Assembly (NCBI GenBank): GCA_963745835.1
Contig: CAVUZH010000003.1
Location: forward strand, 896,001-960,000
DNA length: 64,000 nt
Direction: 5' to 3'
Origin: an uncultured delta proteobacterium
GTDB lineage: Bacteria; Desulfobacterota; Binatia; UBA9968
The notes beneath the pieces were generated by a model that saw only the letters and a program-made list of their open reading frames with translations, had not been told where the DNA came from and made no database searches. Of the stretch, positions 8,737-36,559 are shown in pieces. How positions within the stretch are numbered: position 1 is the first letter of the stretch; each line of letters opens with the position of its first letter. The position numbers and the translations under genes were made by a program.

Positions 8737-9870
8737 GTGAAACTCATTACGGTCAAAGATTGCTATCCTCTCTGCATCATCGCCCTCATACAAGTAGCGA
8801 ATCGGATTCCTTCGCCTAAATTGAGGTTGTTTCTCGTGAAAGCCGTCGCCTCAATGGCGCACCGGTTGTCAACAACAAAAAAAAGACTCAGTGAAAAGAA
8901 TGTGGGCGAAATATTTGGCGGTCATTTAAGCAAGGAGCGGATCGAAGCAATCGTCAAATCCTCATTTTATGAATTTTGGCGCGAAATTTTTTTAATGTCG
9001 CCGAGCAAAATCCCAATGGCTCCGCTTAGGAAAGTCAATATTCATGGCCTGGACCATTTACAGAACGCGGTAAACAAAGGAAAAGGCGTCATATTGTGGG
9101 AGAGCAGCCATTTTGGCGGAAGGTTCCTGGCGAAACGAATCTTGTGTGAGAAAGGCTTTGCACTGCACCAAGTCCATGGCGAATATCACATGGCAGGACT
9201 TCCCAATAACGGAAGCTTTGGAAGCTGGACAAGGAAACATTTCATACGTCCTTTCTTCGAGAATTGCGAAAGCTGTTTCGTTAAAGAAACAATCCATATA
9301 ACCGCCGGGCACTCCCTCGCCGTTTCCAAGATTCTCTTGAAGCTGCTGAAGCAGAATAGCATTATTTGCATTAGCGCAGATGTTGGCCGTGGACATAAAT
9401 TAATTTCCGTCCGGTTCCTCGGCCGCACCGAATTGTTTCCAACAGGAATGGTCACTCTTGCAAAACTAACCGGGGCGCCGATTCTTCCTTTGTTCTGCCT
9501 CCAGGAAAATGGGAGTACGGCGAGTCTCATCATTGAGTCGCCTGTTTGTCTTGAAATGGATCCGGATCGAGAGAGCAATTTAACAAAGACCGTTATTCAG
9601 TACGTGGGTTTGTTGGAGTCGTATATTATGAAGTACCCGGAACAGTACCGAAATTGGCACTTACTCTGTTCGCCACTTAGGCCTATTCCAGAAGCACGAG
9701 CCGGTTACGCTCGCCCGCGCAGCTCTTTCTCAAAAGTGATTGATTCCCCAGTACTACGTGAAATCTTTATAGATGGGTTACATGTTAGAACAGCGCGACG
9801 TAAATCACGCGGCAATGTCGTTTCAGCTGAATCTAAAGTTGTTGTCTTTACTTCTCAAAGGCAACCATAA
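8737..9870 (+). CDS. Lysophospholipid / lipid A late acyltransferase family protein
   Basis: GLDHLQNAVNKGKGVILWESSHFG, ADVG, VRFLGRTELFPTGMVTLAKLTGAPILP, YPEQY..WH. Confidence 0.8.
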   Translation: MKLITVKDCYPLCIIALIQVANRIPSPKLRLFLVKAVASMAHRLSTTKKRLSEKNVGEIFGGHLSKERIEAIVKSSFYEFWREIFLMSPSKIPMAPLRKVNIHGLDHLQNAVNKGKGVILWESSHFGGRFLAKRILCEKGFALHQVHGEYHMAGLPNNGSFGSWTRKHFIRPFFENCESCFVKETIHITAGHSLAVSKILLKLLKQNSIICISADVGRGHKLISVRFLGRTELFPTGMVTLAKLTGAPILPLFCLQENGSTASLIIESPVCLEMDPDRESNLTKTVIQYVGLLESYIMKYPEQYRNWHLLCSPLRPIPEARAGYARPRSSFSKVIDSPVLREIFIDGLHVRTARRKSRGNVVSAESKVVVFTSQRQP

Positions 9871-10978
9871 AGCTGCAGGGGAACTATTGCAGGATGGTGC
9901 TGTTCGACCGGAAGATTTTATTCGCTTCGTCGAGCAGCATTGGTTACATCTTCTGGTTTTTCCTCTGCTCAACGGATCGCCGGCACGGAAATGGCTGCCG
10001 CGCAAGTGTTTCGCTGAACTTAAAGCTTACTCCTTACGACAATGGGCTACACAGGAGCGCCTGATCCGAGAACTTTTTGGTATTTCAACTCTCTTGGAAG
10101 CAGCCGGCCATGAGTTCATATTGCTCAAGGGACCTTATCTCGCCGAGCGGTTCTTCGGGGGTATCGATCGCCGCCCATTCTCGGACCTGGACATTCTTAT
10201 CAGAAGAGAAGATATCGCAGCGGTGGAACGGCGTTTGTGCGATAACGGTTTCGCCAACAACTCCTCTACTTTACTTAGCCGGCGACTCACTACTTATTTT
10301 ACCTATTCCTTTGACTTCGTTAAGCCCAATGTTGCGGTCGATCTGCATTGGCGTTTTTCGGCCCAGCTTACCCACCGTCTCGATTACCAAGCTATCTGGG
10401 AACAGAAACAAGTCTTCAGCTTGCGCACGCATCGTTTTTGGGTATTGCCCGACGAGTACGAAGTAGTTTTCAATCTCATCTCCATCTTCAAAGACCTGGA
10501 GATGGGTATCGCCCGTTTAAGATCCTTCGTTGATTTATACTTCATCCTTAGCCGAGTCGGTGACCAACTCGACTGGGAAGCATTTCGCGAACATCGGAAG
10601 CGTGAGAAGGTTCTCCGGATCTCCGTTAGTATTCTAAATTTGTTTTTCGAGTTGTTCGACTGCAGGGACGAATTTCCAAGGGTGGCTGCAATGGTTGCGG
10701 GCGAGGAGCGACAAATCAAGGTCGTTCCCGTAAAACACTACCGGGATTTAATGGACGTAGTTCCCGGAGCGGCGCGGAACAAGATGTGGGCGTCTGATCT
10801 ATACGAATGCTCCCGGTTCAATCTGTTTCTGTGGTGGGTCCTAGGGTTGCCGTTTCGTATCGCCGTCTACCATCCAGCCAAGTATGCTCGGATAAAAGAT
10901 ATGATGAATTGGATAGGTTTTGCGCGGCCCGAACGCAGACTTGAGGCAGACGCGCTCAGGGAAATGAATAATCAATAA
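9773..10978 (+). CDS. Uncharacterised nucleotidyltransferase family protein (NTP_transf_5-like)
   Basis: ILLKGPYLA...RPFSDLDILI, VDLHW, LRSFVDL. True start may be 9782 or 9815. Confidence 0.85.
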   Translation: MGYMLEQRDVNHAAMSFQLNLKLLSLLLKGNHKAAGELLQDGAVRPEDFIRFVEQHWLHLLVFPLLNGSPARKWLPRKCFAELKAYSLRQWATQERLIRELFGISTLLEAAGHEFILLKGPYLAERFFGGIDRRPFSDLDILIRREDIAAVERRLCDNGFANNSSTLLSRRLTTYFTYSFDFVKPNVAVDLHWRFSAQLTHRLDYQAIWEQKQVFSLRTHRFWVLPDEYEVVFNLISIFKDLEMGIARLRSFVDLYFILSRVGDQLDWEAFREHRKREKVLRISVSILNLFFELFDCRDEFPRVAAMVAGEERQIKVVPVKHYRDLMDVVPGAARNKMWASDLYECSRFNLFLWWVLGLPFRIAVYHPAKYARIKDMMNWIGFARPERRLEADALREMNNQ

Positions 10979-11123
10979 ACACCTCGGTCAAACAGCCATT
11001 CGAGTCGGAAATTCGCCGCCTACCGAGAGATCGGCCTCAGCAGCACAACTTAATCAAGCTCATTCACGGGAAACCTGATTGACCCCTGAGTATCCAGCTT
11101 CTCTTCACTGTGGCGGTTCCGCT

Positions 11124-11885: not shown

Positions 11886-11907
11886 TCCACTCAGTGGAAC
11901 ACAAAAT

Positions 11908-12666
11908 ATGCGCGTTGTGATAACCGGCGCTGCCGGTCGCATCGGTCGTCAGATGGTAGAAGAGCTCTCTGACGCGTATGAACTTCGCCTCATAGACCGT
12001 GTGCGCCTGCCTCGGCGAAGGTCGATTGTCGCCGACCTTTCTCGAAGTCATGGCGGTCCGATGAAGCGCACCTGGCGGTGCTTTGGACGTTCGGCTTGGA
12101 TCGAATTGTTTCGGGGAGTCGATGTCGTGCTCCACTTGGCGGCAGATGTCCGCAACGATGCGCCATGGGATTCGGTATACGTTAATAACATAAAGGCTAC
12201 ATGGAACGTCCTTGAAGCTGCAGCGCGATATCAAGTACCTCGGGTGATCTTCGCCAGTTCAAACTGGGCGGTCAGATCGCTTGAGCAATCGTTGGCGCCG
12301 GCATGTTACCAGCCGGGCGGTCCCAAGATTGGCTCTGCCGCTTCGCCACAACCTCTCGGTCCGTACGGTATCTCCAAAGCTCTTGGCGAGCTTGCAGGGC
12401 GAATGTTCGTGGATCAGCGGCAGTTACGTTTATTCATCGCCGTTAGGATCGGCGCCTATGCGCCCGAACCCGAAAGGACCGATGAGAGGTTAAGCGCTCT
12501 CTGGATCGGTGTTCAGGATCTCCGCAGCCTGCTGCGCCGCTGCGTCGAATCATCATCGGAAGGATTTCATGTCGTCTATGGCGTTTCAGGTCAGACGACG
12601 ACGCCCTATGATTTATCGTACACGTGTAATTTTCTCTCGTGGCAACCGCGTCAAAGCGCTCTGTGA
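11908..12666 (+). CDS. NAD-dependent epimerase/dehydratase (tandem paralogue)
   Basis: VVITGAAGRIG, FASSNWAV, LAPACYQPGGPKIG, YGISK. Closely similar to 11124-11885. Confidence 0.85.
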   Translation: MRVVITGAAGRIGRQMVEELSDAYELRLIDRVRLPRRRSIVADLSRSHGGPMKRTWRCFGRSAWIELFRGVDVVLHLAADVRNDAPWDSVYVNNIKATWNVLEAAARYQVPRVIFASSNWAVRSLEQSLAPACYQPGGPKIGSAASPQPLGPYGISKALGELAGRMFVDQRQLRLFIAVRIGAYAPEPERTDERLSALWIGVQDLRSLLRRCVESSSEGFHVVYGVSGQTTTPYDLSYTCNFLSWQPRQSAL

Positions 12667-14026: not shown

Positions 14027-14737
14027 ATGTCGTCGTTAGTCAGTTGCATCGTTCCGGTTTTCAACGGCGAGCGATATTTGGGCGAGGCGCTCGAGAGTAT
14101 TCTGGCGCAAACCTACCGGCCGCTCGAGATTATCGTTGTCGATGATGGATCGACCGACACTACGCCAGGGGTCGCGGCTTGTTACGAAGAGCAAATTCGC
14201 TATGTAAGACAAGATAACGCCGGAGCGCCAAGCGCGCGTAATCTTGGGCTGAGCCTTTCCGGCGGCGGGTTTGTAGCGTTTCTCGATGCCGACGACCTCT
14301 GGGGTGCCGAGAAGTTGGAACGGCAAATGCGGCGATTCGATGTGCGTCCGGAACTCGAACTATGTGTCACGTACTTGCAGAATTTTTGGATTGCGGAACT
14401 GAAGGCTGAAGAGAACCGCTTCAAAGGCCATCGGCTCTCCGAGCCGGTGCCTGGTTACGTTACACAGACTCTCTTGGCCCGCAGATCCGCTTTCGACAAG
14501 GTCGGCATGTTTGACGAGTCTTTGCAGGTCGGAGATACGACGGACTGGTTTTTACGCGCCGGAGAGCGGGGGCTAGTAACTGAATTGCTTACCGATGTAC
14601 TAGTTAATCGACGGATGCACGAGCATAACATGTCTATGCAGTCGGGCACTCGTCGTATGACCCCGCAAATGCAACATTCGATGTTGCGTGTCGTTAAGGC
14701 GTCGCTCGATCGCAGCCGGCTTGATCACAAGAACTGA
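14027..14737 (+). CDS. GT2 (GT-A) glycosyltransferase
   Basis: VSCIVPVFNGERYL, VVDDGSTD, ARNLG, FLDADDLW. Confidence 0.9.
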   Translation: MSSLVSCIVPVFNGERYLGEALESILAQTYRPLEIIVVDDGSTDTTPGVAACYEEQIRYVRQDNAGAPSARNLGLSLSGGGFVAFLDADDLWGAEKLERQMRRFDVRPELELCVTYLQNFWIAELKAEENRFKGHRLSEPVPGYVTQTLLARRSAFDKVGMFDESLQVGDTTDWFLRAGERGLVTELLTDVLVNRRMHEHNMSMQSGTRRMTPQMQHSMLRVVKASLDRSRLDHKN

Positions 14738-14897: not shown

Positions 14898-15882
14898 ATG
14901 GATTTTAAATACGACGTGGAAGCGGATTGGGTTCTGTTGACGACCTGCAATTTCCGTTGTGCCTACTGCTTTGTTCCGCTTCCTGACTTGGCGAGCAAGT
15001 TAACGACGCATGGCACGAATGTTCAGTGGGCGGAAGGATTCGCGGCAACCGAAAAGACCTGGCTATTGCACATAAGCGGGGGCGAACCTTCCATTTATCC
15101 GGGCTTCGTTGATCTGTGCGAAAAACTCAGTCGGCGTCATTACTTGTCAATTAATTCCAACCTGTCGCACCGGTGTATAGAAACCTTCGGGGAAACAATC
15201 GATCCGGAACGAGTTCATTTTATCAATGCAGCCGTGCACTATGACGAGAGGCCAAGGCCGAGATCGCTTGCGGCTTTCATAACTCGTGTGCAGAAGCTCC
15301 ATATGCACCGGTTTCATGTGTTTGTCTCCTTGGTTATGACTCCTATCATGGTGAGGAACTTTCCTGAAATATCGAGGTACTTCGAATCCCATGGATTATC
15401 TCTCATTCCAAAGGTTATGCGCGACCGATTCCAAGGGAAGGTCTACCCACATGCGTACTCTGGTGAGGAGAAGTCCCTCCTGCGTGAATATTTAGCGAAG
15501 GCAAGGGAGAACTATGTTTCAGTCAAAGCCGTGATGGGTGAAACACCGACGATTAACATGCTGGATGATGACAGGTTCCTGGATTGCCCTCGGAGTTATC
15601 GCGGTAAGCTCTGTGGTTCGCGACACAACTTTGTCCGCATCGAACCGAATGGAGCTGGTGGTCCGTTGTGGGTCGGCGATGCAACTTGGCAATATCCTTC
15701 TAAAAAATGTCGCTCTTCTTAACACGCCCAAACCTTGTGACAGTTTTTACTGTCCGTACTTTTGTGAGAAATACACGTCATCGCCATTCGCGCCTGCGCA
15801 AGAAACGAAGAGAGATCTTGGTGATTTTTTCGTGTCATTGAAGGCGTGGCGAGATTCGCAACGGCAACAGCCGGAGAGATAA
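14898..15882 (+). CDS. Radical SAM protein with C-terminal Cys-rich (twitch/SPASM-like) domain; one +1 frameshift near 15652
   Basis: CNFRCAYC, SGGEP. ORF 14898-15722 continues in the frame of 15538-15882: ..LC..RIEPNG/VVRCG..LGNI..KPCDSFYCPYFC. Confidence 0.8.
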
Positions 15883-15992: not shown

Positions 15993-16715
15993 TTGACGAC
16001 GGAGAACTACTTTACGGGATCATCTTTGATCTGCTGCATCGTGCCAGTTTACAACGGCGAAAAGTATTTGTCCGAGACGCTGGATAGTATTCTGGCGCAG
16101 ACGTATCGGCCTTTGGAGATACTCGTGGCCGACGATGGCTCGACGGGACCGCCTCGGTTGTGGCGAGTTATGGCGATCAGGTTCGACATCTATTCCAGCC
16201 TAACGCTCCAAACGGCCGCTATATGCAACTTGGGCCTCAGGACCGCGCAACGCGCCTTTCGTTTCGTGGATGCAGGACGATCTGTGGCATCCAGACAAGT
16301 TAGGAAGTCAGATAGCTCGTTTTTAGGTATGGCTTCAATTCGACGTGAGCGTCACACATGGGCCAAAATTTTTCGGTCATGGAGCTCGAGGAGGAACGTG
16401 AGCAGTTCCACGATCACGGGGTTTCACAACCCTACCCAGTATGTGCCGCAGGCGCTCCTGGCACGACGCACGCTGTTTAACACAGTGGGTTACTTCAGGT
16501 GTCCGCTCCCAGGCAGGTGGACGCTACCAATTGGTTTCTGCGCGCAGTTGAACATGGAGCATCCTGGAGTTGTTACCCGATGTTCTGGTGTATAGTCGCA
16601 TCCTCAGAATAACTTAAGTCGGCGCATGAGTTCTGCCAGCAGAAGTGAGTATCTGCAACTCTTGAAGTCCTCGTTAGATCGCCGGCGCCTTCAAAAAATC
16701 CGAAGACGCTGCTAA
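15993..16715 (+). pseudogene. GT2 glycosyltransferase pseudogene (paralogue of 14027 and 17413)
   Basis: ICCIVPVYNGEKYLSETLDSILAQTYRPLEILVADDGST, then multiple frameshifts. C-terminal 'LKSSLDRRR' is recognisable near 16660-16690. Confidence 0.8.
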
Positions 16716-16876: not shown

Positions 16877-16885
16877 AGAGGAGGG
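16877..16885 (+). promoter_or_regulatory. Strong Shine-Dalgarno site of the PqqD/RRE gene
   Basis: AGAGGAGGG ending 4 nt upstream of ATG 16890. Confidence 0.7.
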
Positions 16886-16889
16886 TCCG

Positions 16890-17339
16890 ATGTTAAGTTT
16901 AAAAGATCGTTTGCGTGTGAACGAAGAAGAGGTCGCTGCCAAGGTGATCGATGGCGAGGCGATCATCATCAACCTGGCCAACGGGGTCTACTACAGTATG
17001 GACAAAGTAGGGGCTCTGATGTGGGATGTACTTCAGGGAGGACATAGCTTAGAAGAAGCGATTGTGGCCATCACTGGCCAGTACGACGTTTCGCCTGAGC
17101 AGGCAGAATTGAATGTACGAGAGTTGGTCCAGGAGCTTGTGCAAGAGAATCTGCTGCGTCCTTCAGACAACGGCGTTACCGCTGATGCGTCAGGAACGAT
17201 TGAGCAGCAGGAAAAAATGCCATACGAGACTCCCAAGCTCAATATCTATAGGGATATGGGAGACCTCCTGGCACTCGATCCTCCGGTTCCCGGTCTCGGC
17301 GACACTCCCTGGAAAGAGCCCGAAGAGCCTTCCAAGTAG
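16890..17339 (+). CDS. PqqD-family / RiPP recognition element (RRE) protein fused to a C-terminal leader-like peptide tail
   Basis: aa 1-90 fit the PqqD fold (VIDGEAIIINLANGVYYSMDKVGALMWDVL..GHSLEE..YDVSPEQAELNVRELVQELVQENLL), followed by a linker and the tail MPYETPKLNIYRDMGDLLALDPPVPGLGDTPWKEPEEPSK. Confidence 0.88.
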   Translation: MLSLKDRLRVNEEEVAAKVIDGEAIIINLANGVYYSMDKVGALMWDVLQGGHSLEEAIVAITGQYDVSPEQAELNVRELVQELVQENLLRPSDNGVTADASGTIEQQEKMPYETPKLNIYRDMGDLLALDPPVPGLGDTPWKEPEEPSK

Positions 17340-17412: not shown

Positions 17413-18114
17413 ATGGAACAACCGCTGATCAGTTGTATCATTCCGGTCTTCAATGGGGAGCGATATCTGGGCGAGGCACTCGACAGCATTCTCGCTCAGA
17501 GCTACCGACCCATCGAGATCATCGTCGTCGATGACGGATCCACCGATGGCACGGCTGGTGTCGTTGCTGCTTTTGGTGATCAGGTGCGCTACCTCAGGCA
17601 GAACAATCAGGGACCGTCGTCGGCGCGAAACTTGGGCATCCGCGCTGCCGCAGGCGGCTTCATTGCTTTTCTCGATGCAGACGATTTGTGGCATTCCGAA
17701 AAGCTACAACGACAAATGGACCGCTTCAAAACGCGTCGGGAACTGGACTATTGTGTAACGCATGTCCAGAATTTCTGGATTCCGGATCTCAGGGAGGAAG
17801 CAGCAAAGTATCGCGACCATCGCATCACGCGACCCATTCCGGGATACGTCACAGGAACGCTCCTTGGGCGTCGCGCCTTTTTTGAATCAGTGGGCTTATT
17901 CAACTTGGCTTTGGCCCACGGCGACAGCACCGAGTGGTTTTTGCGCGCAGCCGAACGCGGAGCGGTGATGGAACTTTTGCCGGAAGTCCTTATGTATCGT
18001 CGCCTGCACCCCACCAACCGCAGTCGGGTTCGCGCGGCTACTAGCCGTGAGGAGTATCTAAGGCTCGTGAAATTGTCGCTCGACCGCAGGCGCGGTTCCG
18101 AGCAGAACTCCTAA
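17413..18114 (+). CDS. GT2 (GT-A) glycosyltransferase
   Basis: ISCIIPVFNGERYL, VVDDGSTD, FLDADDLW. Paralogue of 14027. ATG 17413 lies downstream of the PqqD stop. Confidence 0.9.
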   Translation: MEQPLISCIIPVFNGERYLGEALDSILAQSYRPIEIIVVDDGSTDGTAGVVAAFGDQVRYLRQNNQGPSSARNLGIRAAAGGFIAFLDADDLWHSEKLQRQMDRFKTRRELDYCVTHVQNFWIPDLREEAAKYRDHRITRPIPGYVTGTLLGRRAFFESVGLFNLALAHGDSTEWFLRAAERGAVMELLPEVLMYRRLHPTNRSRVRAATSREEYLRLVKLSLDRRRGSEQNS

Positions 18115-19948: not shown

Positions 19949-21844
19949 ATGTGTGGAATATTGGGGAAAATCACGTTTTCTGACGGGGGGTGCGCCGTCT
20001 CAGGAGAAGAGATCTCGCCCCGCCTCATCGGCCTGATGGCGCGCCGCGGCCCCGATAACGAAGGTCGTTGGAGTGATGGCCGAAGGTGCGCGATTGCGTT
20101 TCGTCGCCTCGCGATCCTGGACCTTTCCGACAGGGCCCATCAGCCGATGCTCACACCGGATGGACGCTTCGCCCTCGTCTGCAACGGAGAGGTCTACAAC
20201 TTTCGCGAGTTACGCAGCGAACTCGTTCACGAAGGCGTAAAATTTCGCTCGACCGGAGACACGGAAGTCATCCTGTACGCTCTCGTCCATTGGGGCCATC
20301 GCGCTTTGTCTCGCTTCAATGGCATGTTTGCCTTGGGTTTCTACGACTCGGTTGAAAAGCGCTTGCTCTTGGCTCGCGACCACGCCGGCATCAAGCCTCT
20401 TTACTACATGCTCACGTCCCGGGGTTTGGTGTTCGCCTCTCAATACGATCAGATTCTCGCTCACGGTTGGAGCCGTGAATCGCGTTCGTCTCCAGGGGCT
20501 CTGGGACTCTACCTGCGACTTGGTTACATTCCCGCGCCCTACGCGCTACTTCACGACACTTACATGCTCGAGCCCGGTGCCTGGCTGGAGATCTCAAGCG
20601 ATGGCCATCTTCATCGTGGCCGTTTCTTTGAGTTTCCAATCTGGCGTGAACCGACCCTCCGCGGCGAAGAGGCATTTGAAGCGGTGGACGCGGCGATCAC
20701 CGCAGCCGTGCGCCGCCACATGGTGAGTGACGTCCCTTTGGGTGCGTTTCTCTCAGGAGGCGTTGATTCTCCGCTCGTGACCGCCAAAATGCGGGCGGTG
20801 AGTAACGGCATCCTTCGGGCTTTTACCATCGGCACTAACGGAGACCATCACGACGAGTCGGCAGATGCCATTGCCTATGCCCGTGAGATCGGAGTCGAGC
20901 ACACGGTGGAGCACGCAACGCCAGACACGGCCCTGAAAATTCTGGATGATGTGGTAGCCGCCTGCGGGGAACCTTTCGCCGATTTTTCTATCTTCCCCAC
21001 CATGTTGGTATCACGACTCGCCCGCCAAGAGGTCAAAGTCATAGTCTCCGGAGACGGCGGTGATGAACTATTCTGGGGATATCCCGACCGTTTCGCGTCG
21101 GTGCTGGATAAGCTGGCTATACTGAACCAGGCACAGCACGCGGGAAATCCCGGCTGGCATCTAAAGAGATTGCTCGCCACCGACCGGGCCGGGCCGGATC
21201 CGCGCTGGCCAGGCAGCATCGGCGACATTTATCGAATCAAACACACCCATCTCTCCGAAGGCTGGCTCAAGCGTATTTTTCCCGACCTTCCGGACTGGCC
21301 GGCTGATTTCTCTCTCTTCACTTACACGGGCTTGGAGCCCGATCGGACCGCGCAGTGGCTGCGTTGGAATGAGTTTGTGGGTAACTTGACCAGGATTCTT
21401 CTAAAAGTGGATCGGGGCAGCATGTATCATTCGCTGGAAGTGAGAGTGCCGTTTTTGGACCGGGAGGTTGTTGAGACAGCAAGCCGCGTAGACTGGCGCT
21501 CCTGTCTGGATGTGAAACAGAGGCTCGGCAAGTTGCCGCTCCGCCATTCACTGGCGCGCCATGTGCGCCACCAAACCTGGACCAAGCGAGGTTTCACCGT
21601 CCCAATGGACCAATGGCTCCGGGGACCTCTGAGGCAGGTCTTTGAAGAGACCCTGCTCGACCGCCGGGAACTCGCAGGTCTCCCTCTGAATAGAGCAGCC
21701 GCGCGCGAGATGTTCGGCCGGCACCTTTCGGGCCAAGTCAACTACGATTGGCCGCTTTGGATGTTACTGAGTCTCGCTTTGTGGGAGAAGCATCACTATG
21801 GCGAAAGTCGTACTGTCCGCCATTCGCTGAGCAACATGATTTGA
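19949..21844 (+). CDS. asnB: Asparagine synthase (glutamine-hydrolysing)-family amidotransferase
   Basis: MCGI N-terminal Cys, RRGPD, RLAILDLS, NGEVYN, FLSGGVDS, SGDGGDE, KVDRGSM..SLEVRVPFLD. Confidence 0.9.
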   Translation: MCGILGKITFSDGGCAVSGEEISPRLIGLMARRGPDNEGRWSDGRRCAIAFRRLAILDLSDRAHQPMLTPDGRFALVCNGEVYNFRELRSELVHEGVKFRSTGDTEVILYALVHWGHRALSRFNGMFALGFYDSVEKRLLLARDHAGIKPLYYMLTSRGLVFASQYDQILAHGWSRESRSSPGALGLYLRLGYIPAPYALLHDTYMLEPGAWLEISSDGHLHRGRFFEFPIWREPTLRGEEAFEAVDAAITAAVRRHMVSDVPLGAFLSGGVDSPLVTAKMRAVSNGILRAFTIGTNGDHHDESADAIAYAREIGVEHTVEHATPDTALKILDDVVAACGEPFADFSIFPTMLVSRLARQEVKVIVSGDGGDELFWGYPDRFASVLDKLAILNQAQHAGNPGWHLKRLLATDRAGPDPRWPGSIGDIYRIKHTHLSEGWLKRIFPDLPDWPADFSLFTYTGLEPDRTAQWLRWNEFVGNLTRILLKVDRGSMYHSLEVRVPFLDREVVETASRVDWRSCLDVKQRLGKLPLRHSLARHVRHQTWTKRGFTVPMDQWLRGPLRQVFEETLLDRRELAGLPLNRAAAREMFGRHLSGQVNYDWPLWMLLSLALWEKHHYGESRTVRHSLSNMI

Positions 21845-21885
21845 TTCCCTGCCTATTTGCGGGGTGGTCCGACAGTGATTACGCG

Positions 21886-24204
21886 ATGCGGGTACTTTTC
21901 TGGTCGACTTTGTTTTGGCCCTACATTGGAGGATCCGAGTACTTCGGCGCCAAGTTGGTTTCCGCGTTGCGGGAGCGCGGGTACGAGTTGATCGTTTTAA
22001 CATCGCACGATTATCTCGATCTTCCCGACGAGACACACTACCAGGGCATTCCGATCTATCGGCTTCCGTTGTTGCAGGCTCTACGTGACAGCGATGCCAG
22101 CCGGTTCATCGAGATCTGCCAGAAGGTGAAGAAGCTCAAGCGAACCTTCAAGCCGGACTTGGTGCACTTGAACGGCGTCAATTCGACCACCGTGTTCCAT
22201 CTCAGGACAGTCGATGCGGAACCGGCGGCTACTTTGGTTCGGGTTAACCAAGAGCTGCTGCCGCACCAGCACCTTGGGCCGGAGACGATCTTCAGCCAGA
22301 CACTTCGCTCCGCCCGTTGGACAACCTGTGTCTCATCCGCAGTGTTGAAGCACGCTAGTCGGTTGGTGCCTGAGATTGCAAGACGCTCATCCGTTATTTA
22401 CAACGGCTTGGAAGTTCCATCCTTTTCCCCGACGCCGCTCTCGTTTGAAGCGCCTCGTTTGATGTGTGTGGGACGTCTGGTCCCGGCGAAGGGATTCGAC
22501 CTAGCATTGGTCGCATTGGCCTCGATCATCAAAAGATACCCCAACATCCGCCTGGTTATTGCCGGTGACGGACCGGACCGGCTTCAACTGGAACGGCAAA
22601 CCTCTCAACTCGGTCTGAGCGAGGTCGTCGAATTTCTTGGGTTGGTGGAGCCGGAAAAGGTGCTCGCTCTGATCAATCGGGCCACACTGGTACTGATCCC
22701 GTCCCGCTACGAGGGACTTCCGACGGTTGCCTTGCAGGCCGCGCTTATGGCCCGGCCGATTGTGGCAACACGGGTTGGAGGACTGGCGGAAGCGGTGATC
22801 GATCGGCAGACTGGTTTGCTAGTTGAGAGCGGTGACAGTCATAGCCTTGCGGAGGCGATTGCATTCTTGCTGAGTAATCCTCAAGGAGCGATCGAGATGG
22901 GAACGGCCGGTCGAAAGCGGGTGCAACAACTTTTCCTTTGGCAGCGCTGCGTCGACGCCTATGACGCTCTTTACAAAAGATTGATTGCCAGGACCGATAC
23001 GGGAAAGTCGCTTCAATCGCATGAGCCGGAAGCCGAGAATGCCGTCCAGCCATCAACCTCCCGTCTCCAAACGCAGAGAAATCAACCAGTGATGATGCGG
23101 GTCTTATTCTGGTCGGAGCTGTTTTGGCCCTATATAGGGGGCGCTGAAGTGTTCGGCACGAAACTTCTGCATGCTCTGCGACAGCGCGGTCATGACGTCA
23201 TCGTCGTGACACGCCAGGATTCGCCGGATCTTCCCCACAAAGACCAGTATCAGGGAATCCCCGTTTATCGCTTTCCGTTCTTGACGGCGTTTGCCAATCG
23301 CAGCGTGGATCAATTGATCGCGGCTCGGCAAGAGTTGGCCAAGCTCAAGCGCGAGTTTGCGCCCGACTTGGTCCATATACACGGTTTCGGGCCGAGCGTG
23401 CTTTTTCATCTGGACACAACTCAGGCGCATCCTTCCCCGTTATTGGTCACGTTGGTAGAAGAGCGACAACACCGAGAGGGCCGTGACCTGTTGGATCGGA
23501 TGCTGCGGGCGGCCGATTGGATCACCGGCAAATCGACGGCCGTGCTGGCGCAAGCGCGTCGATTCGTTCCCGAGATTGCGACCCGCTCGTCGGTCATTCA
23601 AAATGGTTTGGCAGTTCCGGCGCTCCTACCGGGACCGCTCCCTACCGATGCACCGCGGCTGCTGTGTTTAGGGCGGCTCGCCGTCCAGAAAGGATTTGAT
23701 CTCGCCCTAACGGCGTTGGCCTCGATTCATGATCGCTTTCCCCATGTTCGTCTGACCATCGCCGGCGATGGGCCTGAGCGGCCTACCTTGGAGCGGCAAG
23801 TTTCCGAACTGGGTCTCACGAATGTCGTCGATTTTATAGGTTGGGTTTCACCTGATGAGATATTCGCTCTAATAAATACATCTAGCATTGTCATAATGCC
23901 CTCTCGGTGGGAGGGACTCCCTTCGGTCGTACTGCAAGCGGCTATTATGGCGCGTCCGGTGGTGGCAACCCGCGTCTCGGGTCTTTCGGAAGTCGTAGCC
24001 CATCAGAACACCGGCCTACTTGTCGAACCCGAAGACGCCTGGGCTCTAGCCGAAGCGATCACTTCGCTGCTCGAACAGCCCGAAGCCGCCGTGCGGATGG
24101 GCCGGGCAGCCCGCCGGCGGGTCCAAGAACTATTTAGTTGGGAGCGTTGCGTGAGCGCTTACGAAGCTCTCTGGCGCCGCCTCGTAATGGACCGGCGCGG
24201 ATAA
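21886..24204 (+). CDS. Tandem double-GT4 glycosyltransferase fusion
   Basis: Two full GT-B units in one ORF, each starting MRVLFWS.LFWPYIGG and containing GRL...KGFD and EGLP. Confidence 0.85.
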   Translation: MRVLFWSTLFWPYIGGSEYFGAKLVSALRERGYELIVLTSHDYLDLPDETHYQGIPIYRLPLLQALRDSDASRFIEICQKVKKLKRTFKPDLVHLNGVNSTTVFHLRTVDAEPAATLVRVNQELLPHQHLGPETIFSQTLRSARWTTCVSSAVLKHASRLVPEIARRSSVIYNGLEVPSFSPTPLSFEAPRLMCVGRLVPAKGFDLALVALASIIKRYPNIRLVIAGDGPDRLQLERQTSQLGLSEVVEFLGLVEPEKVLALINRATLVLIPSRYEGLPTVALQAALMARPIVATRVGGLAEAVIDRQTGLLVESGDSHSLAEAIAFLLSNPQGAIEMGTAGRKRVQQLFLWQRCVDAYDALYKRLIARTDTGKSLQSHEPEAENAVQPSTSRLQTQRNQPVMMRVLFWSELFWPYIGGAEVFGTKLLHALRQRGHDVIVVTRQDSPDLPHKDQYQGIPVYRFPFLTAFANRSVDQLIAARQELAKLKREFAPDLVHIHGFGPSVLFHLDTTQAHPSPLLVTLVEERQHREGRDLLDRMLRAADWITGKSTAVLAQARRFVPEIATRSSVIQNGLAVPALLPGPLPTDAPRLLCLGRLAVQKGFDLALTALASIHDRFPHVRLTIAGDGPERPTLERQVSELGLTNVVDFIGWVSPDEIFALINTSSIVIMPSRWEGLPSVVLQAAIMARPVVATRVSGLSEVVAHQNTGLLVEPEDAWALAEAITSLLEQPEAAVRMGRAARRRVQELFSWERCVSAYEALWRRLVMDRRG

Positions 24205-30172: not shown

Positions 30173-31282
30173 ATGGCCGTGATTGAAACTGAAACAATTC
30201 AAGTCTCCCCGCCGCGTGCTCCAACCGTCGATACCGACCTCGGCTTCAAAGTGATGCGGGAGGCTTTTGCTGAGGCGAAGCGCTCGCATTCTGACGCCTT
30301 TTGCGAATCAACCTACATTCTAGCTGGCCAAGCCGCGCAAATGCGAATTGTCGGACGGAAACTTGCTCAGTTTATGAATTTGCCATTTGCACATCTCCGG
30401 TCTGATGATGCGCATTCCCTGATGCCCGGCCTCACCATTGAAATCTGGGATCAGGCTGAAACAAATGTCTCCTGCCAAATTGGGTTGACACGAGACAATC
30501 TGGATTTGCATCCGAATCTAAAGCGTTCTGCGGATGGTCGCTATGCTTCTTATCAACTCCAACATTCATTGGTATGTCTCGACCGTGTGTCCGGCTTGAT
30601 GATTGGTTATATATCGAATGCGGAAGAGCTGTCACTTTATGAACGCGGCAGGCCACTGCATGTGCCCTTGAGTTTGTGGCACAAGAACCAAGACATGCTG
30701 CTAATGCATGCCGGTCTGGTGTCCCAGAACGGTCGAGGTGTGTTGCTAGCGGGTCCCGGCGGGTCAGGCAAATCGACGTCGGCTGTCATGTGTGCATATG
30801 CGGGATTTGATTATCTGAGTGATGATCTAGTTGGCTTGGAACTCTCTGGCGGCAGTTTTGTCGGACATAGTCTCTACAATTCGACTTTCATGGAGCCGGA
30901 CCATCTTAAGCGTTTTAGTCAGCTTGAACGGCATGCGATAAGAGGCAGGTATTCATTCGAAAAAAAACATCTGGTCTTGCTGTCACAGATTGCCTCGCTG
31001 CGATTCGCGCACTCCTGCCGGATTCGTTCCATAGTCCTCCCTCGCGTCTTGCATCGTCCGACATCGGTTCTTCGGCGCGCTTCGAAAGGCGAGACACTCA
31101 TGGCCCTTGCCCCGAGCTCTCTTCTCGTTGGCGAAAGAAGTCAGGGTGTGGGCGGTTTCAATAAACTCGCGCGGTTGGTGGAGCAGGTGCCTTGCTACTG
31201 GTTAGAACTGAGTAACGCTCTGGAGGAAATTCCTCTTGTTCTTGGAGGATTGCTTTCGGTGGGAGCGGGCGTTGAAACTTGA
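30173..31282 (+). CDS. HPr kinase-related P-loop kinase
   Basis: MHAGLVSQNGRGVLLAGPGGSGKST...DYLSDD (H, Walker A and DD of the HprK C-domain), ending VPCYWLEL. Confidence 0.82.
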   Translation: MAVIETETIQVSPPRAPTVDTDLGFKVMREAFAEAKRSHSDAFCESTYILAGQAAQMRIVGRKLAQFMNLPFAHLRSDDAHSLMPGLTIEIWDQAETNVSCQIGLTRDNLDLHPNLKRSADGRYASYQLQHSLVCLDRVSGLMIGYISNAEELSLYERGRPLHVPLSLWHKNQDMLLMHAGLVSQNGRGVLLAGPGGSGKSTSAVMCAYAGFDYLSDDLVGLELSGGSFVGHSLYNSTFMEPDHLKRFSQLERHAIRGRYSFEKKHLVLLSQIASLRFAHSCRIRSIVLPRVLHRPTSVLRRASKGETLMALAPSSLLVGERSQGVGGFNKLARLVEQVPCYWLELSNALEEIPLVLGGLLSVGAGVET

Positions 31283-32381
31283 GGCGGCGAAACAAGATGC
31301 CTCGAACGGGGTCATCGCCTTCGATCTAATGCGGACCGCATTCGAGCGAACTTGGAAAAGTCATCCGGATCGCCGCTGGGATTCATTGTGCAGATTTGCC
31401 GGCCGACCGGCTCGGATCAGGGTGGTGGGGCAGGGCCTTTCAAAACAGATTGCCCGGGCTTTCGAACATCTTCTGGTTAAAGAAAATCCATCGAGCCCCG
31501 AACTCAAAATCGATCTATGGGATGAAGGGGACACGTCGGTCTCTTGTCCGGTGAATACGAAACCACTGGACCCGCGTCTGCTGAAATCGAGTTCTTATGT
31601 TGAATTCGGATTAATCCTAGGCTCCCTTAACGATCCTTATATCGGCTGCCAGCGCCCCCAAGTGGTCACCTGGTTTGGCCGTCGGGAGCAGCACATCGTT
31701 GGCTGGATATCCCATCACCATCAGCTCCCGATTTACGAACGCGGCAAGCCACTGCACTTTCCGTTGTTACTGTGGCATAGCGACCGAGGCGCGGAGGTGA
31801 TCCACGCCGCCCTCGTTTCTAAAAACGGCAAAGGAGTGCTCTTTGCGGGCAAAGGCGGGGCGGGGAAATCGACGGTCGCGTTAGCTTGTATTCGAGCCGG
31901 CTTTGGCTATCTCGGCGACGATTACATCGGGTTAGAAGCATGCGCGGGCGGGCACTTCGTCGGCCACAGTTTATACAGCGCGACTTGGCTCATGGCCGAT
32001 CATTTCGCGCGGTTTCCCCAATTGATGAGCTACGCAATCTACCCAGAGCGCCCTGAGCAAGAAAAAACGCTGGCTCTCTTATCTGAAGTTTTCCCGCACC
32101 AGCTTTGCCGAACTGCTACCGTCTACGCGTTGTTACTCCCACGCATCGTTGCCGATTCGGCAACCCAGATAAGGCCTGCTACGAAGGCGGAAGCGCTTTT
32201 CGCACTGGCGCCGAGCTCGATTCTCCTTCGTCCGAATTCAGGAGCAGCAACTTTGAACAAGCTTGGGCGCTTGGTTGAGCAGGTTCCGTGCTATTGGCTG
32301 GAATTTACACAAGATCTAAATGATATTCCGCCGCGGCTACAGGCCATCATCGGTCCCGCCCGGCCGGATCACTCACATTGA
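31272..32381 (+). CDS. HPr kinase-related P-loop kinase (tandem paralogue)
   Basis: IHAALVSKNGKGVLFAGKGGAGKST...YLGDDY. Shares YERG.PLH, GHSLY, ALAPSS and VEQVPCYWLE with 30173. Start uncertain. Confidence 0.82.
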   Translation: MKLEAAKQDASNGVIAFDLMRTAFERTWKSHPDRRWDSLCRFAGRPARIRVVGQGLSKQIARAFEHLLVKENPSSPELKIDLWDEGDTSVSCPVNTKPLDPRLLKSSSYVEFGLILGSLNDPYIGCQRPQVVTWFGRREQHIVGWISHHHQLPIYERGKPLHFPLLLWHSDRGAEVIHAALVSKNGKGVLFAGKGGAGKSTVALACIRAGFGYLGDDYIGLEACAGGHFVGHSLYSATWLMADHFARFPQLMSYAIYPERPEQEKTLALLSEVFPHQLCRTATVYALLLPRIVADSATQIRPATKAEALFALAPSSILLRPNSGAATLNKLGRLVEQVPCYWLEFTQDLNDIPPRLQAIIGPARPDHSH

Positions 32382-35347: not shown

Positions 35348-36559
35348 ATGAATAACGCATCCTATTCAACACCCTCGTTGTCGCTGGCTTTATCTCTTGT
35401 TCTTCCCACCTCGGAGGAAACCCTGTTACTCCGCACATGTCTGTTGCCGCGTGATCTGGCGCGACAAGCTTGGGAAGAATGGCGTATCCGCTACGACGGC
35501 CCCGAAATGGGTTTTATCGGAAATAAACCGTCAATAAGAAAACTCCGTCCGTTGCTCTTCAGTGCCTTCCAACAGCATAACCTTCAGGCGGATAACAAGG
35601 TCAAGACCTACCTGCGATCGGTCTATCTAAAGGAGGAACTACGGAACAAGATATTTCGTCGAATTTGCCGCGCCGTTCTTCAGTTACTTCAAAGAGAAGA
35701 TTTTACCGCCATTGTACTCAAGGGCACCGCCTTGGCGGAAACCGCTTACGGCAACCCCGTGCTGCGCCATTGCCACGATATTGACATTCTGTTGCCGGAC
35801 AATGAATTGAGCCGAGCTGCGGATCTGCTGTCATCTTTGAGCTTCCGCAGAGTCGATCTACACGCCCAACCAGGAAACCCTCAAGTCAGGATGAAGCATG
35901 AGTCCGAACTCCCTCTCGAGCTTCACAGCCGACTATTCGAGGTGCCGTACTACAACGTAGTTTCCTCAGAAATTAAGGCACGAAGTAAAAGTCGGCTCAT
36001 TGCAGACATTCCGGTGAAAATCCTCACGCCCGCCGATAGCCTGCTCCATGTCTGCGGTCACGCCTCATACTCGAGCAAGCGTCCGTCGCTGCGCTGGGTC
36101 ACCGACGCCTGGTTCATTGTCGAACGTCATCCGGACCTAGATTGGGATCTGCTTTTGGAGTCCATACATCGTAGCCGACTGTCTTTACCTTTGTCCGTAA
36201 TGCTCGGGTACCTGGCAGAAGACCTGAATGCGTCAATCCCCTCTACATTTCTGAGTCGTTTGTCCGCGGCTGCATCAAAGTGCGACACGATAGAACGCCA
36301 GCTGGCGTTGCGCGGAACACGGGCGGCCGGTCAAGCAAGTCTCAAGGAATTATTTCGAAGGACAACAAACTGGCGAGAACGAGTGTTGCTCATTCAGTGG
36401 CTGCTTTTCCCATCATCCCGATATCTGCGGTGGGTGGATGAGGTCCGAGATTCGCGCCTACTACCTTTTCACTACGTTTACCGGCCAATTCGGCACTTTG
36501 CTCGATATGTTTGGTCGAAGTTACGGGGCACCATGCGGCGTACGGCGCTTGCTGAATAG
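35348..36559 (+). CDS. Uncharacterised nucleotidyltransferase family protein (NTP_transf_5-like)
   Basis: IVLKGTALAETAY...RHCHDIDILL, LELH, LLHVCGH, LRWVTDA. Confidence 0.85.
   Translation: MNNASYSTPSLSLALSLVLPTSEETLLLRTCLLPRDLARQAWEEWRIRYDGPEMGFIGNKPSIRKLRPLLFSAFQQHNLQADNKVKTYLRSVYLKEELRNKIFRRICRAVLQLLQREDFTAIVLKGTALAETAYGNPVLRHCHDIDILLPDNELSRAADLLSSLSFRRVDLHAQPGNPQVRMKHESELPLELHSRLFEVPYYNVVSSEIKARSKSRLIADIPVKILTPADSLLHVCGHASYSSKRPSLRWVTDAWFIVERHPDLDWDLLLESIHRSRLSLPLSVMLGYLAEDLNASIPSTFLSRLSAAASKCDTIERQLALRGTRAAGQASLKELFRRTTNWRERVLLIQWLLFPSSRYLRWVDEVRDSRLLPFHYVYRPIRHFARYVWSKLRGTMRRTALAE

Follow-up and report, generated by a model that had tools for sequence, protein, structure and literature searches.

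A widespread PqqD/RRE-domain protein carries its own leader-type peptide and is accompanied by kinase, nucleotidyltransferase and glycosyltransferase genes

RiPP recognition elements (RREs) are known as stand-alone proteins or as domains of enzymes, and they are understood to bind a leader supplied in trans. The closest described relatives of the protein examined here are the discrete lasso-peptide B1 proteins, such as TbiB1 (5V1V/5V1U) and TfuB1 (6JX3), bound to YxxPxL leaders in which Tyr, Pro and Leu lie at i, i+3 and i+5, positions -17 to -12 of lasso leaders (PMC10368454); the contacts of these residues with B1 are taken here from structure entry titles and from that paper only. In phosphorylated and phosphoglycosylated lasso clusters (paeninodin, pseudomycoidin and bsf), the A, B1, B2 and C genes are joined by a kinase K and a nucleotidyltransferase N. 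The HPr-kinase homologues phosphorylate Ser of leader-bearing lasso precursors, and the nucleotidyltransferase adds one or two hexoses to that phosphate (PMC8498205; PMC10368454). In the bsf cluster the discrete RRE BsfB1 greatly accelerates the HPr-kinase homologue BsfK, and how B1-type RREs activate such enzymes was raised as an open point (PMC10368454). A leader or substrate and its recognising protein also occur in one chain in two other settings. In engineered leader-in-cis RiPP enzymes the cis leader keeps the enzyme switched on. Borosins undergo backbone N-methylation (PMC8429565). Borosin precursors are fused to their methyltransferase. In both settings a peptide is fused to a catalytic enzyme.

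We analyzed a 64,000-nucleotide stretch of an uncultured delta proteobacterium of the Binatia (contig CAVUZH010000003.1, positions 896,001 to 960,000; hereafter the window), in which a sequence-only reading had reported a PqqD/RRE domain fused in cis to a lasso-leader-like tail. That observation was confirmed: the open reading frame encodes a 149-aa natural protein that consists only of an RRE, a variable linker and a 40-aa tail, and the enzymes are separate genes. The relevant features are as follows.
16877..16884 (+), Shine-Dalgarno site AGAGGAGG, five bases before the ATG
16890..17339 (+), gene for the 149-aa RRE-linker-tail protein, stop codon included
16956..17156 (+), PqqD/RRE domain, residues 23-89 by Pfam (the model places strands from residue 7)
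17163..17216 (+), variable low-complexity linker, residues 92-109 (SDNGVTADASGTIEQQEK)
17217..17252 (+), leader-type strand, residues 110-121 (MPYETPKLNIYR), with Y112, P115, L117 and Y120
17253..17291 (+), predicted amphipathic helix plus proline motif, residues 122-134 (DMGDLLALDPPVP)
17292..17336 (+), variable C-terminal end, residues 135-149 (GLGDTPWKEPEEPSK), with a half-conserved G-L-x-D-x-P-W
30173..31282 (+), HPr-kinase-like P-loop kinase a (369 aa), the predicted binding partner
31236..32381 (+), HPr-kinase-like P-loop kinase b (381 aa), a paralogue 38% identical to kinase a
9773..10978 (+), NTP_transf_5 nucleotidyltransferase a (PF14907, E 7e-37)
35348..36559 (+), NTP_transf_5 nucleotidyltransferase b (PF14907, E 2.1e-37), the copy whose orthologues accompany the fused gene in other loci
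17413..18114 (+), family-2 glycosyltransferase (GT2) of about 233 aa directly downstream (PF00535, E 3.5e-35), with a paralogue at 14027-14737

First, the identity of the RRE was examined. Pfam PqqD (PF05402) matched residues 23-89, covering profile positions 1-67 of 67, at E 2e-14 and 54.1 bits against a gathering cut-off of 23.4. A profile search of solved structures matched TbiB1 at E 1.4e-20, as well as two further lasso PqqD-family chaperones, with 27-31% identity over 76-88 columns, and the top six Foldseek hits were TbiB1 or TfuB1 in complex with leader peptide (E 3e-6 to 6e-4). However, the NCBIfam lasso B1 models NF033536 and NF033530 scored 53.1 and 38.3 bits, below their cut-offs of 80 and 70. 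The PQQ-pathway PqqD model (TIGR03859) scored 12.9 bits against 46, and the PQQ, mycofactocin and SynChlorMet PqqD identities were all rejected on scores. The statement that stand-alone PqqD proteins end at about 90-100 aa held in the sequences seen: solved PqqD/B1 chains were 91-119 aa, and tail-less relatives in the same phylum were 88-123 aa. The very strong Shine-Dalgarno site was also borne out. Among 37 mechanically assigned + strand starts in the window, several of them uncertain, it gave the strongest pairing to a generic anti-SD, -12.5 kcal/mol against -9.5 for the next best.

Next, we investigated the conservation of the tail (MPYETPKLNIYRDMGDLLALDPPVPGLGDTPWKEPEEPSK, residues 110-149), since a tail not conserved among homologues had been named beforehand as grounds for rejecting the idea. 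The tail is far more than chance. The gene was the only copy in the 7.28-Mb genome, but 1321 proteins matched at E<=1e-3 among 1381 candidates, and the best 120 were 147-183 aa long with 98-100% coverage. In a 118-row alignment the mean information content was 2.90 bits for residues 111-135, 2.27 for the RRE and 0.92 for the linker (residues 90-110). These rows were picked for length and for carrying the tail motif, so the contrast is partly by selection; without that filter, 123 of the 150 best 50%-identity representatives carried an LLALDP-type motif. The tail pattern, Y-x-x-P-x-L-x-x-Y-x-D-M-x-D-L-L-A-L-D-P-P-x-P, was found across at least seven phyla. In the 118 rows, Y112 was present in 112, P115 in 114, L117 in 110 and Y120 in 93 plus 20 with Phe; D130 and P131 were invariant, and D122, M123, A128, P132 and P134 were kept in at least 95% of rows. 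The most invariant residues, D130, P131, P132 and P134, were not hydroxyl residues. W141 was present in 75 of 97 rows, and in 116 tails the length after DPPxP was 4-25 residues, with a median of 13. Met110 was not conserved in 28 close homologues, where the position was L, V, M, A or S, so the tail is not a separate reading frame with an internal start.

The AlphaFold2 model gave a pLDDT of 90-97 for the RRE and 97 for residues 111-120, with a strand at 118-120, whereas the two ten-residue blocks covering the linker (91-100 and 101-110) had means of 72 and 78, the short helix at 124-127 had 65 and the C-terminal end about 52. In a natural protein with two RREs, each RRE was followed by its own PY..P.L..Y strand, modelled at pLDDT 79-91, and only the last unit carried the DMxDLLxLDP part. 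Docking of the YxxPxL stretch in the RRE cleft is inferred from these confidence values and from homology with B1-leader complexes.

We also searched for free relatives of the tail. A 28-position profile of residues 109-136 was run, with filters off, against 4630 stop-to-stop segments and hit six tandem ORFs of 31-36 aa at one related locus, L046, at E 1.7e-5 to 3.2e-4, aligned to profile positions 1-17 or 1-18. These ORFs sit beside an 88-aa tail-less PqqD, an HprK-like gene and an NTP_transf_5 gene. So the first 18 residues of the tail are homologous to a real precursor leader. Cassettes of this sister type were also seen at the loci L039, L042 and L043; they belong to the same phylum and in one case to the same genome. 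The enzyme trio is the same, and the peptides share K-x-x-Y-x-x-P-x-L-x-x-Y-x-D-[LMI]-x-D with the tail, but they are separate genes in several copies, end in short Ser/Thr-rich stretches, and have no LALDPPxP and no GT2/GT4 array. The penultimate leader Thr (or Ile/Val) of lasso leaders, 15 residues after the Tyr, is present as Thr in the peptides of L046 and L039, whereas in the fused tail position 127 is Leu in 104 and Phe in 12 of 118 rows. TIGRFAMs uses the name 'HPr-rel-A system' for such a trio. We found no description of this cassette in the papers searched.

In the window itself there was no other small ORF bearing YxxPxL. In 17 tail-bearing loci the tail profile hit the fused gene in 16 and nothing in L037, whose divergent tail scored above E 1, and the only other hit was one degenerate remnant in L001. 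A word-based search for proteins of 30-80 aa resembling residues 105-149 gave eight hits, none of which shows a split form. At least five are plainly pieces of the fused gene: three (P0272, P0275 and P0276) begin inside the last RRE helix, one (P0278) carries upstream RRE-like sequence and one (P0277) lacks the YxxPxL part; the other three begin in the linker. This search needs shared 5-residue words, so distant free peptides could not appear in it, and those of L046 were found by synteny. An ESM Atlas look-up of the tail gave no usable hit.

The fused gene keeps company with HprK-like kinase, NTP_transf_5 and GT2 genes, often also GT4, and this cassette is kept in Planctomycetota, Nitrospirota, Actinomycetota, Acidobacteriota, Binatia and proteobacterial MAGs. 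An HprK-like gene was present in 10 of 12 loci and 3 of 4 further loci, and GT2 of this type in 11 of 12 plus 4 of 4. The kinase is the next gene downstream in L003, L009, L012, L035, L037 and L038; in L005 and L007 a GT2-like ORF lies between the two, and in L008 the kinase frame directly downstream is split. In contrast, the radical SAM genes, considered as partners, were not part of the conserved neighbourhood (3 of 17 tail-bearing loci including the window). The SPASM enzyme recurred only in the window, L002 and L012, and the other radical SAM only in the window and L001.

Both window kinases carry the catalytic motif H-x14-G-x2-G-x-G-K-S-x15-D-D reported for the lasso-type kinases (PMC10368454), in kinase a as H179, G194, G197, G199-K200-S201 and D217-D218. 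It was also present, with the same spacing, in 7 of 10 aligned kinases; the other three have E-D as the last pair, and one of these has Arg for the second Gly. However, the NCBIfam HprK_rel_A model scored 57.5 and 49 bits against a cut-off of 200, so equivalog membership is not supported. A controlled co-fold of the protein with kinase a gave a median ipSAE of 0.71, while the best of three controls gave 0.29. That mark was reached by 58 of 80 solved complexes and 2 of 110 mismatched pairs, counts that hold only roughly because our own alignments were used. The runs shared at least 65% of contacts, and the pLDDT of the partner was at least 74. The predicted interface comprises kinase residues 304-337 against RRE residues 12-36 and tail residues 120, 123, 126 and 127. 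Such a result is the confidence of the model and not a measurement. By sequence, no RRE-kinase complex is in the PDB, and only HprK/P P-loop matches appeared.

The lasso core machinery was then sought. No B2 leader protease (Transglut_core3, PF13471) lies in the window, and a search of the whole genome gave one borderline match (25.8 bits) on another contig. The two AsnB homologues scored 129.9 and 243 bits on the lasso cyclase model (NF033535, cut-off 525) but passed the ordinary asparagine synthase model (349 and 388 bits against 267), and both begin with Met-Cys as glutamine amidotransferases do. A lasso cluster was therefore rejected for the window. In comparison with paeninodin, pseudomycoidin and bsf, the RRE, the HPr-kinase homologue with the same catalytic motif and a nucleotidyltransferase occur together here as well, but the peptide is fused to the RRE, its motif lying 20 residues after the domain; there is no conserved Ser acceptor; and the cassette is joined to GT2/GT4 genes in a roughly 48-kb polysaccharide-type locus.

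We next asked whether the C-terminal end carries a conserved acceptor, because the sequence-only reading held that the tail folds back onto its own RRE and presents an Asp/Thr/Ser-containing segment, including a penultimate Ser, to tailoring enzymes. Ser148 was kept in at least 90% of 28 close homologues only, in which its neighbours vary. Of 133 representative tails, 27 have no Ser or Thr and 25 have no Ser, Thr or Tyr after DPPxP. Although 77 of 116 tails have Ser or Thr in the last five residues, which looked slightly high, the analysis of the 133 representatives by position showed no enrichment (0.06-0.17 per position against 0.153 in the linkers). Taken together, the earlier interpretation was only partly supported: recognition element and precursor-type peptide in one chain is a fair description of the ancestry of the protein, whereas the penultimate Ser was conserved only among close relatives and no analysis showed that the tail is modified.

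The best explanation, in our view, is that the protein is a lasso-B1-type RRE carrying on its C-terminus a leader-type peptide descended from stand-alone precursor peptides. The Y112-x-x-P115-x-L117-x-x-Y120 stretch would fold back and occupy the peptide-binding site of its own RRE, the RRE sheet and the following D-M-x-D-L-L-A-L helix would together form the surface bound by an HPr-kinase-like kinase, and the D-P-P-x-P motif with the flexible last 4-25 residues would be held out from this complex. Of these elements, the fused architecture, the conservation of the tail, its homology to free peptides and the company of the kinase, nucleotidyltransferase and GT2 genes rest on sequence comparison, while the docking in cis is inferred, the binding of the kinase is a prediction passed against controls, and activation of the kinase and any modification of the tail are hypotheses. 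We hold the anatomy (fused leader homologue, cis docking and kinase partnership) with good confidence. We favour, but only tentatively, a mechanism in which the protein acts as a permanently leader-loaded B1 subunit that switches on and positions the kinase, and through it the nucleotidyltransferase and glycosyltransferases, as the natural counterpart of engineered leader-in-cis enzymes. The published precedent is the acceleration of BsfK by BsfB1. The absence of a conserved hydroxyl residue anywhere in the tail, the location of the best-conserved residues in or next to the predicted interface and one GT4-RRE-tail fusion (P0281, 511 aa) favour an adaptor over a substrate. However, in every characterised case that we read the peptide bearing the YxxPxL leader is the substrate of the kinase, so that by plain transfer of function the tail should be a substrate and not only an adaptor. 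Nor does an adaptor explain why D130, P131, P132 and P134, which are not in the confident interface, are the most invariant residues, and the GT4 fusion is a single contig that could reflect a lost stop codon.

The strongest alternative, possible and only somewhat less favoured, is a precursor in cis, the earlier interpretation in adjusted form. In this view the tail is leader plus core, the kinase held by the RRE-leader surface phosphorylates a residue in the free C-terminal end, NTP_transf_5 puts a sugar on the phosphate, as in pseudomycoidin, and GT2/GT4 enzymes extend it to a protein- or peptide-anchored phosphoglycan. The homology to stand-alone peptides beside the same trio, the activities of the two enzyme families in lasso clusters, the usual leader/core pattern of a conserved part followed by a variable end, the lack of another YxxPxL-bearing small ORF in the window and the retention of Ser148 in close homologues agree with this view. 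The dosage also looks like that of a precursor: the gene has the strongest Shine-Dalgarno site, L001 has three protein-identical copies (99.3-99.6% DNA identity) with unrelated flanks, and the sister system has six tandem peptide genes. However, besides the tails without hydroxyl residues, in the lasso register (Tyr at -17) the penultimate leader Thr would fall on L127 and core residue 3, the BsfK site, on P131, neither of which is a hydroxyl residue; no protease or exporter was seen in the cluster; and no modification was observed in any analysis. A bolder form of this view, which is unlikely on present evidence, is that a ribosomally made protein primes a glycan, with the RRE holding its own leader, the free C-terminal end phosphorylated by the HprK-like kinase, or the invariant D-P-P region otherwise activated, NTP_transf_5 attaching the first sugar to it and the arrays of GT2/GT4 enzymes extending it. 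If true, the product would be a peptide-anchored phosphoglycan made inside PEP-CTERM-type polysaccharide loci in many phyla, a new class of glycoconjugate built by RiPP logic, and the small kinase-RRE-nucleotidyltransferase cassettes with tandem peptides would be its free-peptide ancestors.

A purely structural extension, in which the extra strand and helix only stabilise this RRE subfamily, with an undetected separate peptide substrate or none and with the neighbouring genes hitch-hiking, is very unlikely. RRE-like domains that appear vestigial are known (PMC7470986) and much of the tail is modelled with low confidence, but the tail is better conserved than the domain, its low-confidence DMxDLLALDPPxP part is nearly invariant across phyla, which a mere stabiliser would not need, the cassette is kept across phyla and the co-fold passed its controls. 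Least likely is an HPr-like acceptor, in which the folded RRE domain itself and not the tail is the substrate of the kinase, as HPr is for HprK/P, phosphorylated at the family-specific Ser36 at the start of helix 1 as a regulatory switch for the glycan pathway, since, although Ser36 is kept in at least 90% of 118 rows (Gly in TbiB1 and Asn in another solved B1), residue 36 lies in the predicted interface, the kinase side of that interface is its C-terminal region (residues 304-337) and HPr sits on the C-terminal helix of HprK/P, the heterodimer model puts no partner residue at the P-loop (194-201), the first RRE of tandem proteins has Arg or His at this position and nothing else points to it.

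Literature searches on PqqD with HPr kinase, nucleotidyltransferase and glycosyltransferase, on RREs with a fused precursor or a leader in cis, on HprK-related kinases, and on PqqD with exopolysaccharide or PEP-CTERM found no description of this protein family, although subscription journals and supplements, including supplementary figures of PMC10368454 and PMC7470986 that might show similar clusters, lay outside them. What is new in comparison with the lasso B1 proteins is the leader-type peptide on the same chain and, in the window, the setting without lasso machinery. An ancient and widespread natural protein of this kind is a natural version of the engineered leader-in-cis design, gives a handle on how B1-type RREs activate HPr-kinase-like enzymes, and ties RiPP-type machinery (RRE, kinase and nucleotidyltransferase) to large polysaccharide loci in uncultured soil and sediment lineages, where these genes are currently annotated only as 'PqqD' or 'hypothetical'; this suggests that peptide-tailoring machinery is reused inside a sugar-polymer gene cluster.

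Fusions to enzymes were also sought. A search for longer proteins gave two at E<=1e-3 among 1445 candidates, one tandem RRE and the GT4 fusion, which is weak evidence either way. Finally, models for the XrtA/PEP-CTERM exopolysaccharide system were compared with the genes of the window: pepcterm_ATPase scored 273.8 bits against a cut-off of 324.5, PEP_resp_reg 267.7 against 502.6, the amidotransferase 381 against 817 and the stp2 glycosyltransferase 249.6 against 409.

First, the gene itself was examined. The ORF on the + strand at 16890-17339 encodes 149 residues exactly as the sequence-only reading had written them, and the observation of an RRE fused to a leader-like tail held. The ORF is preceded by AGAGGAGG five bases before the ATG. 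Pfam PqqD matched residues 23-89 at E 2e-14. The two lasso B1 models of NCBIfam were the best hits but stayed below their cut-offs (53.1 against 80 bits and 38.3 against 70 bits), and the PQQ, SynChlorMet and GeoRSP PqqD models scored far lower. The genome (7.28 Mb in 25 contigs) has one copy of the gene.

Next, we investigated whether the tail is conserved. A word-based search found 1321 proteins at E<=1e-3 among 1381 candidates, and all of the best 120 were 147-183 aa long and covered 98-100% of the query. In 28 close homologues the stretch PYExPKLNIYRDMGDLLALDPPVPGLGDTPWK was almost invariant, while residues 90-110 varied freely. An exhaustive search of 50%-identity representatives gave 6849 hits at E<=1e-3 and 1023 at E<=1e-10, and 123 of the best 150 carried an LLALDP-type motif. 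The window protein was then aligned with six close homologues and 111 representatives chosen for a length of 135-165 aa and presence of the motif, a selection that inflates tail conservation somewhat. In this alignment of 118 rows D130 and P131 were invariant, and Y112, P115, D122, M123, A128, P132 and P134 were kept in at least 95% of rows, L117 in 110 of 118, Y120 in 93 (plus 20 Phe) and W141 in 75 of 97. The mean information content was 2.90 bits for residues 111-135, 2.27 for the RRE, 0.92 for the linker and 1.32 for residues 136-149. Twelve loci from species genomes, annotated as Binatia, Thermoleophilaceae, Nitrospirota, Isosphaeraceae, Phycisphaerales and Phycisphaeraceae, a betaproteobacterium, Vicinamibacteraceae and three "delta proteobacterium" MAGs, carry the family; all twelve have the tail, and one of them is frameshifted. 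However, the distribution is patchy. In a sample of 201 genomes of the window's own phylum, 18 had a match at E<=1e-15, but only four genomes matched through the tail, while the other 14 matched through the RRE only.

The fold was predicted by AlphaFold2 using the 118-row alignment, which gave a mean pLDDT of 85.1 and a pTM of 0.74. By blocks of ten residues, pLDDT was 90-97 through the RRE, 72 and 78 in the linker, 97 for residues 111-120, 65 for residues 121-130 and about 52 after that. DSSP placed a strand at 118-120 and a short helix at 124-127. The six best Foldseek matches in the PDB were TbiB1 and TfuB1, lasso B1 proteins crystallised with their leader peptides (E 3.4e-6 to 6.1e-4, 25-31% identity), and the family profile matched TbiB1 at E 1.4e-20. 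Lasso leaders carry YxxPxL at positions -17 to -12 (PMC10368454), so the confidently placed part of the tail is the motif that this kind of RRE binds, although its position in the binding cleft is inferred. We also analyzed natural proteins with tandem RREs, of which P0122, P0127, P0131, P0136 and P0162 have two and P0132 and P0138 have three. Every RRE in these proteins is followed by its own PY..P.L..Y-like stretch, but only the last unit continues into DMxDLLxLDP and the W-containing end. A model of P0122, built on only five aligned rows, placed both strands at pLDDT 79-91 with disordered linkers, which fits a unit of RRE plus own strand.

The origin of the tail was also investigated. A word search for free peptides like the tail gave 8 hits, of which at least five are plainly pieces of the fused gene and the other three begin in the linker, so none shows a split form. 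In contrast, synteny gave the answer. Regions of 20 kb around twelve of the matches from the phylum sample were analyzed, and the tail-less PqqD genes there (88-123 aa) lay next to an HprK-like gene in 5 of 8 loci and next to an NTP_transf_5 gene in 6 of 8. Small peptide genes with the same motif were present in the following of these loci:

L046, 7588-8930 (+): six tandem ORFs of 31-36 aa.
L039, 6708-7100 (+): three peptide ORFs.
L042, about 10288 (+): one peptide ending in seven tyrosines.
L043, about 9980 (-): one peptide ending in seven tyrosines.

A 28-position profile built from residues 109-136 of the alignment was run with filters off over 4630 stop-to-stop segments of those eight loci and found exactly the six L046 peptides, at E-values of 1.7e-5 to 3.2e-4, aligned to profile positions 1-17 or 1-18 (K-x-P-Y-x-x-P-x-L-x-x-Y-x-D-M-x-D-L), while the next hit had E 0.65. 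The L046 neighbourhood holds a B12-radical SAM, a DUF362 protein, the peptides, the kinase, an 88-aa PqqD, NTP_transf_5 and a TetR regulator, but no B2 and no cyclase. All the L046 and L039 peptides have Y..P.L and a Thr 15 residues after the Tyr, which is the lasso -2 position, followed by 5-12 variable residues in short Ser/Thr-rich ends, whereas the fused tail has Leu at this position. These small kinase-RRE-nucleotidyltransferase cassettes look like an undescribed linear RiPP-like family. In the window and sixteen other tail-bearing loci, the same profile hit the fused gene in all but L037, whose divergent tail scored above E 1, and otherwise only one degenerate remnant in locus L001; the window has no other small ORF with YxxPxL. 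So the first 18 residues of the tail are homologous to a genuine precursor leader, while the LALDPPxP part and what follows are specific to the fused family, with a variant that reads DP[IV]H[ED]V...GWP instead. Another tail-less relative, at L040:8648-13900, sits in what looks like a true lasso cluster with kinase and nucleotidyltransferase, having NTP_transf_5, PqqD, an HprK-like gene, an AsnB-like gene of 636 aa and, downstream, a small ORF with W-E-T-P-E-M...G......T.

We next examined the genes that accompany the fused gene. The window holds a + strand array of about 48 kb of sugar-modifying and glycosyltransferase genes, which also contains two HprK-like kinases, two NTP_transf_5 proteins, two glutamine-dependent AsnB homologues, two radical SAM proteins, a PMT_2 membrane glycosyltransferase, HD/DUF6817 proteins, a sigma-54 response regulator and an ATPase close to the XrtA/PEP-CTERM ATPase. 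The last two, at 45586-48132, end the array; the regulator scored 267.7 bits on the PEP-CTERM-box regulator model (cut-off 502.6) and the ATPase 273.8 bits against a cut-off of 324.5, which hints at an exosortase-type polysaccharide locus. Across the twelve genome loci, several of which are short, BLASTP against the window's proteins found an HprK-like gene in 10, this type of GT2 in 11, GT4 in 11 and NTP_transf_5 in 8. In four further tail-bearing loci the counts were kinase 3, GT2 4, NTP_transf_5 4 and GT4 1. The kinase is the next gene downstream in L003, L009 and L012 and in L035, L037 and L038. However, in L005 and L007 a GT2-like ORF lies between the fused gene and the kinase, and in L008 the kinase frame directly downstream is split. 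The radical SAM and AsnB genes are not constant. HD_4/DUF6817 proteins follow the kinases in the window (32751-33581 and 33628-34920), and relatives recur in the tail-bearing loci L002, L010 and L036; they may be a further member of the cassette, possibly a phosphohydrolase. The only B2-type match in the genome was a borderline one on another contig. Both window kinases carry the catalytic motif that was mutated in BsfK, the HPr-kinase homologue of the bsf lasso cluster.

Locus L001 has three protein-identical copies of the fused gene within 8.5 kb (6198-6644, 11639-12085 and 14225-14671), with 99.3-99.6% DNA identity and unrelated flanks. Two of them are followed directly by a GT2 gene, and the first by a radical SAM gene and then a GT2. 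The degenerate tail remnant of this locus, joined to a GT2 N-terminal remnant, lies at 11233-11562. This points to repeated duplication of a module of fused gene plus GT2, with the coding sequence kept identical.

Binding to the kinase was examined by co-folding kinase a, one of the two window kinases (with a ten-row alignment from the window and loci), with the fused protein (with the 118-row alignment). The model supports binding but does not show it. The score was 0.71 (three runs: 0.72, 0.60 and 0.71), and the best of 3 controls was 0.29. That mark was reached by 58 of 80 solved complexes and 2 of 110 mismatched pairs, although these counts hold only roughly because our own alignments were used. 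The runs agreed in at least 65% of contacts, and the partner's pLDDT was at least 74. The confident interface comprised kinase residues 304-337 against RRE residues 12-36, that is the sheet, plus tail residues 120, 123, 126 and 127. By sequence, the PDB holds only HprK/P P-loop relatives of this kinase and no RRE-kinase complex, and recall of a like complex by the model is therefore unlikely. The prediction agrees with a published experiment, in which the discrete RRE BsfB1 of the bsf lasso cluster greatly accelerates the HPr-kinase homologue BsfK (PMC10368454).

Two readings of the tail, as adaptor or as substrate, were compared. By homology, the peptide with the leader should be the kinase's substrate, and the nucleotidyltransferase of pseudomycoidin adds hexoses to such a phosphate (PMC8498205). 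The substrate reading is supported by the leader homology, the leader/core-like pattern of conservation, the strongest SD of 37 starts, the three identical copies in L001 and Ser148, which is kept in close relatives. However, of 133 representative tails with a DPPxP-type motif, 27 have no Ser or Thr afterwards and 25 have no Ser, Thr or Tyr, and fifteen of the 27 have the Trp motif and natural-looking ends. No C-terminal position was enriched for Ser or Thr (0.06-0.17 per position against 0.153 in the linkers). In addition, the invariant residues are Asp and Pro, and the residues next in conservation sit in the predicted protein interface. One GT4-RRE-tail fusion also speaks against the substrate reading; in P0281 (511 aa, one 17-kb contig) a GT4 glycosyltransferase is fused in frame to the RRE-linker-tail unit, and in L002 and L003 the GT4 gene overlaps the start of the fused gene, but P0281 is either a real fusion or a lost stop codon. 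Therefore, we tentatively rank first a permanently leader-loaded B1 subunit that would activate and position the kinase module, and we place a precursor in cis second, as possible and only slightly less favoured. The proposal of the sequence-only reading, that recognition element and precursor are in one chain and that the tail folds back onto its own RRE to present a C-terminal segment with a penultimate Ser to tailoring enzymes, is partly supported.

What we hold firmly is the anatomy: a B1-type RRE, a fused leader homologue docked in cis, and a conserved partnership with an HprK-like kinase and NTP_transf_5 outside any lasso pathway. The conserved tail, its leader homology and the gene neighbourhood come directly from the sequence comparisons, whereas docking in the cleft is inferred, binding to the kinase is predicted, and activation of the kinase and any modification of the tail are hypothetical. 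RRE-glycosyltransferase fusions are mentioned in the RRE-Finder papers, but literature searches, which did not reach supplements or subscription journals, found no description of this family or of the peptide-bearing sister cassette. The family differs from the lasso B1 proteins it resembles in carrying the leader homologue on the same chain, and it is of real interest to people working on RiPP recognition and on polysaccharide loci of uncultured lineages.

Irregular or composite genes were also seen within the window:

15993-16595 (+): a GT2 paralogue directly upstream of the fused gene that loses its frame after about 50 residues, a pseudogene or assembly error.
28529-28621 (+): a second GT2 remnant between AsnB homologue b and GT4 gene c, likewise a pseudogene or assembly error.
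14898-15722, 33628-35326 and 11079-12666: several other genes that look cut or overlapped; the radical SAM is 274 aa, against 346 aa for its 89%-identical orthologue in L001, the SMP-30/gluconolactonase domain is split over two ORFs, and two epimerase ORFs overlap by about 200 bases; the genome has 9.3% estimated contamination, so sequencing frameshifts are possible.
21748-24204: an 818-aa protein made of two complete GT4 glycosyltransferase units, which related loci have as two separate genes of about 370 aa (for example L012:5433-7684).
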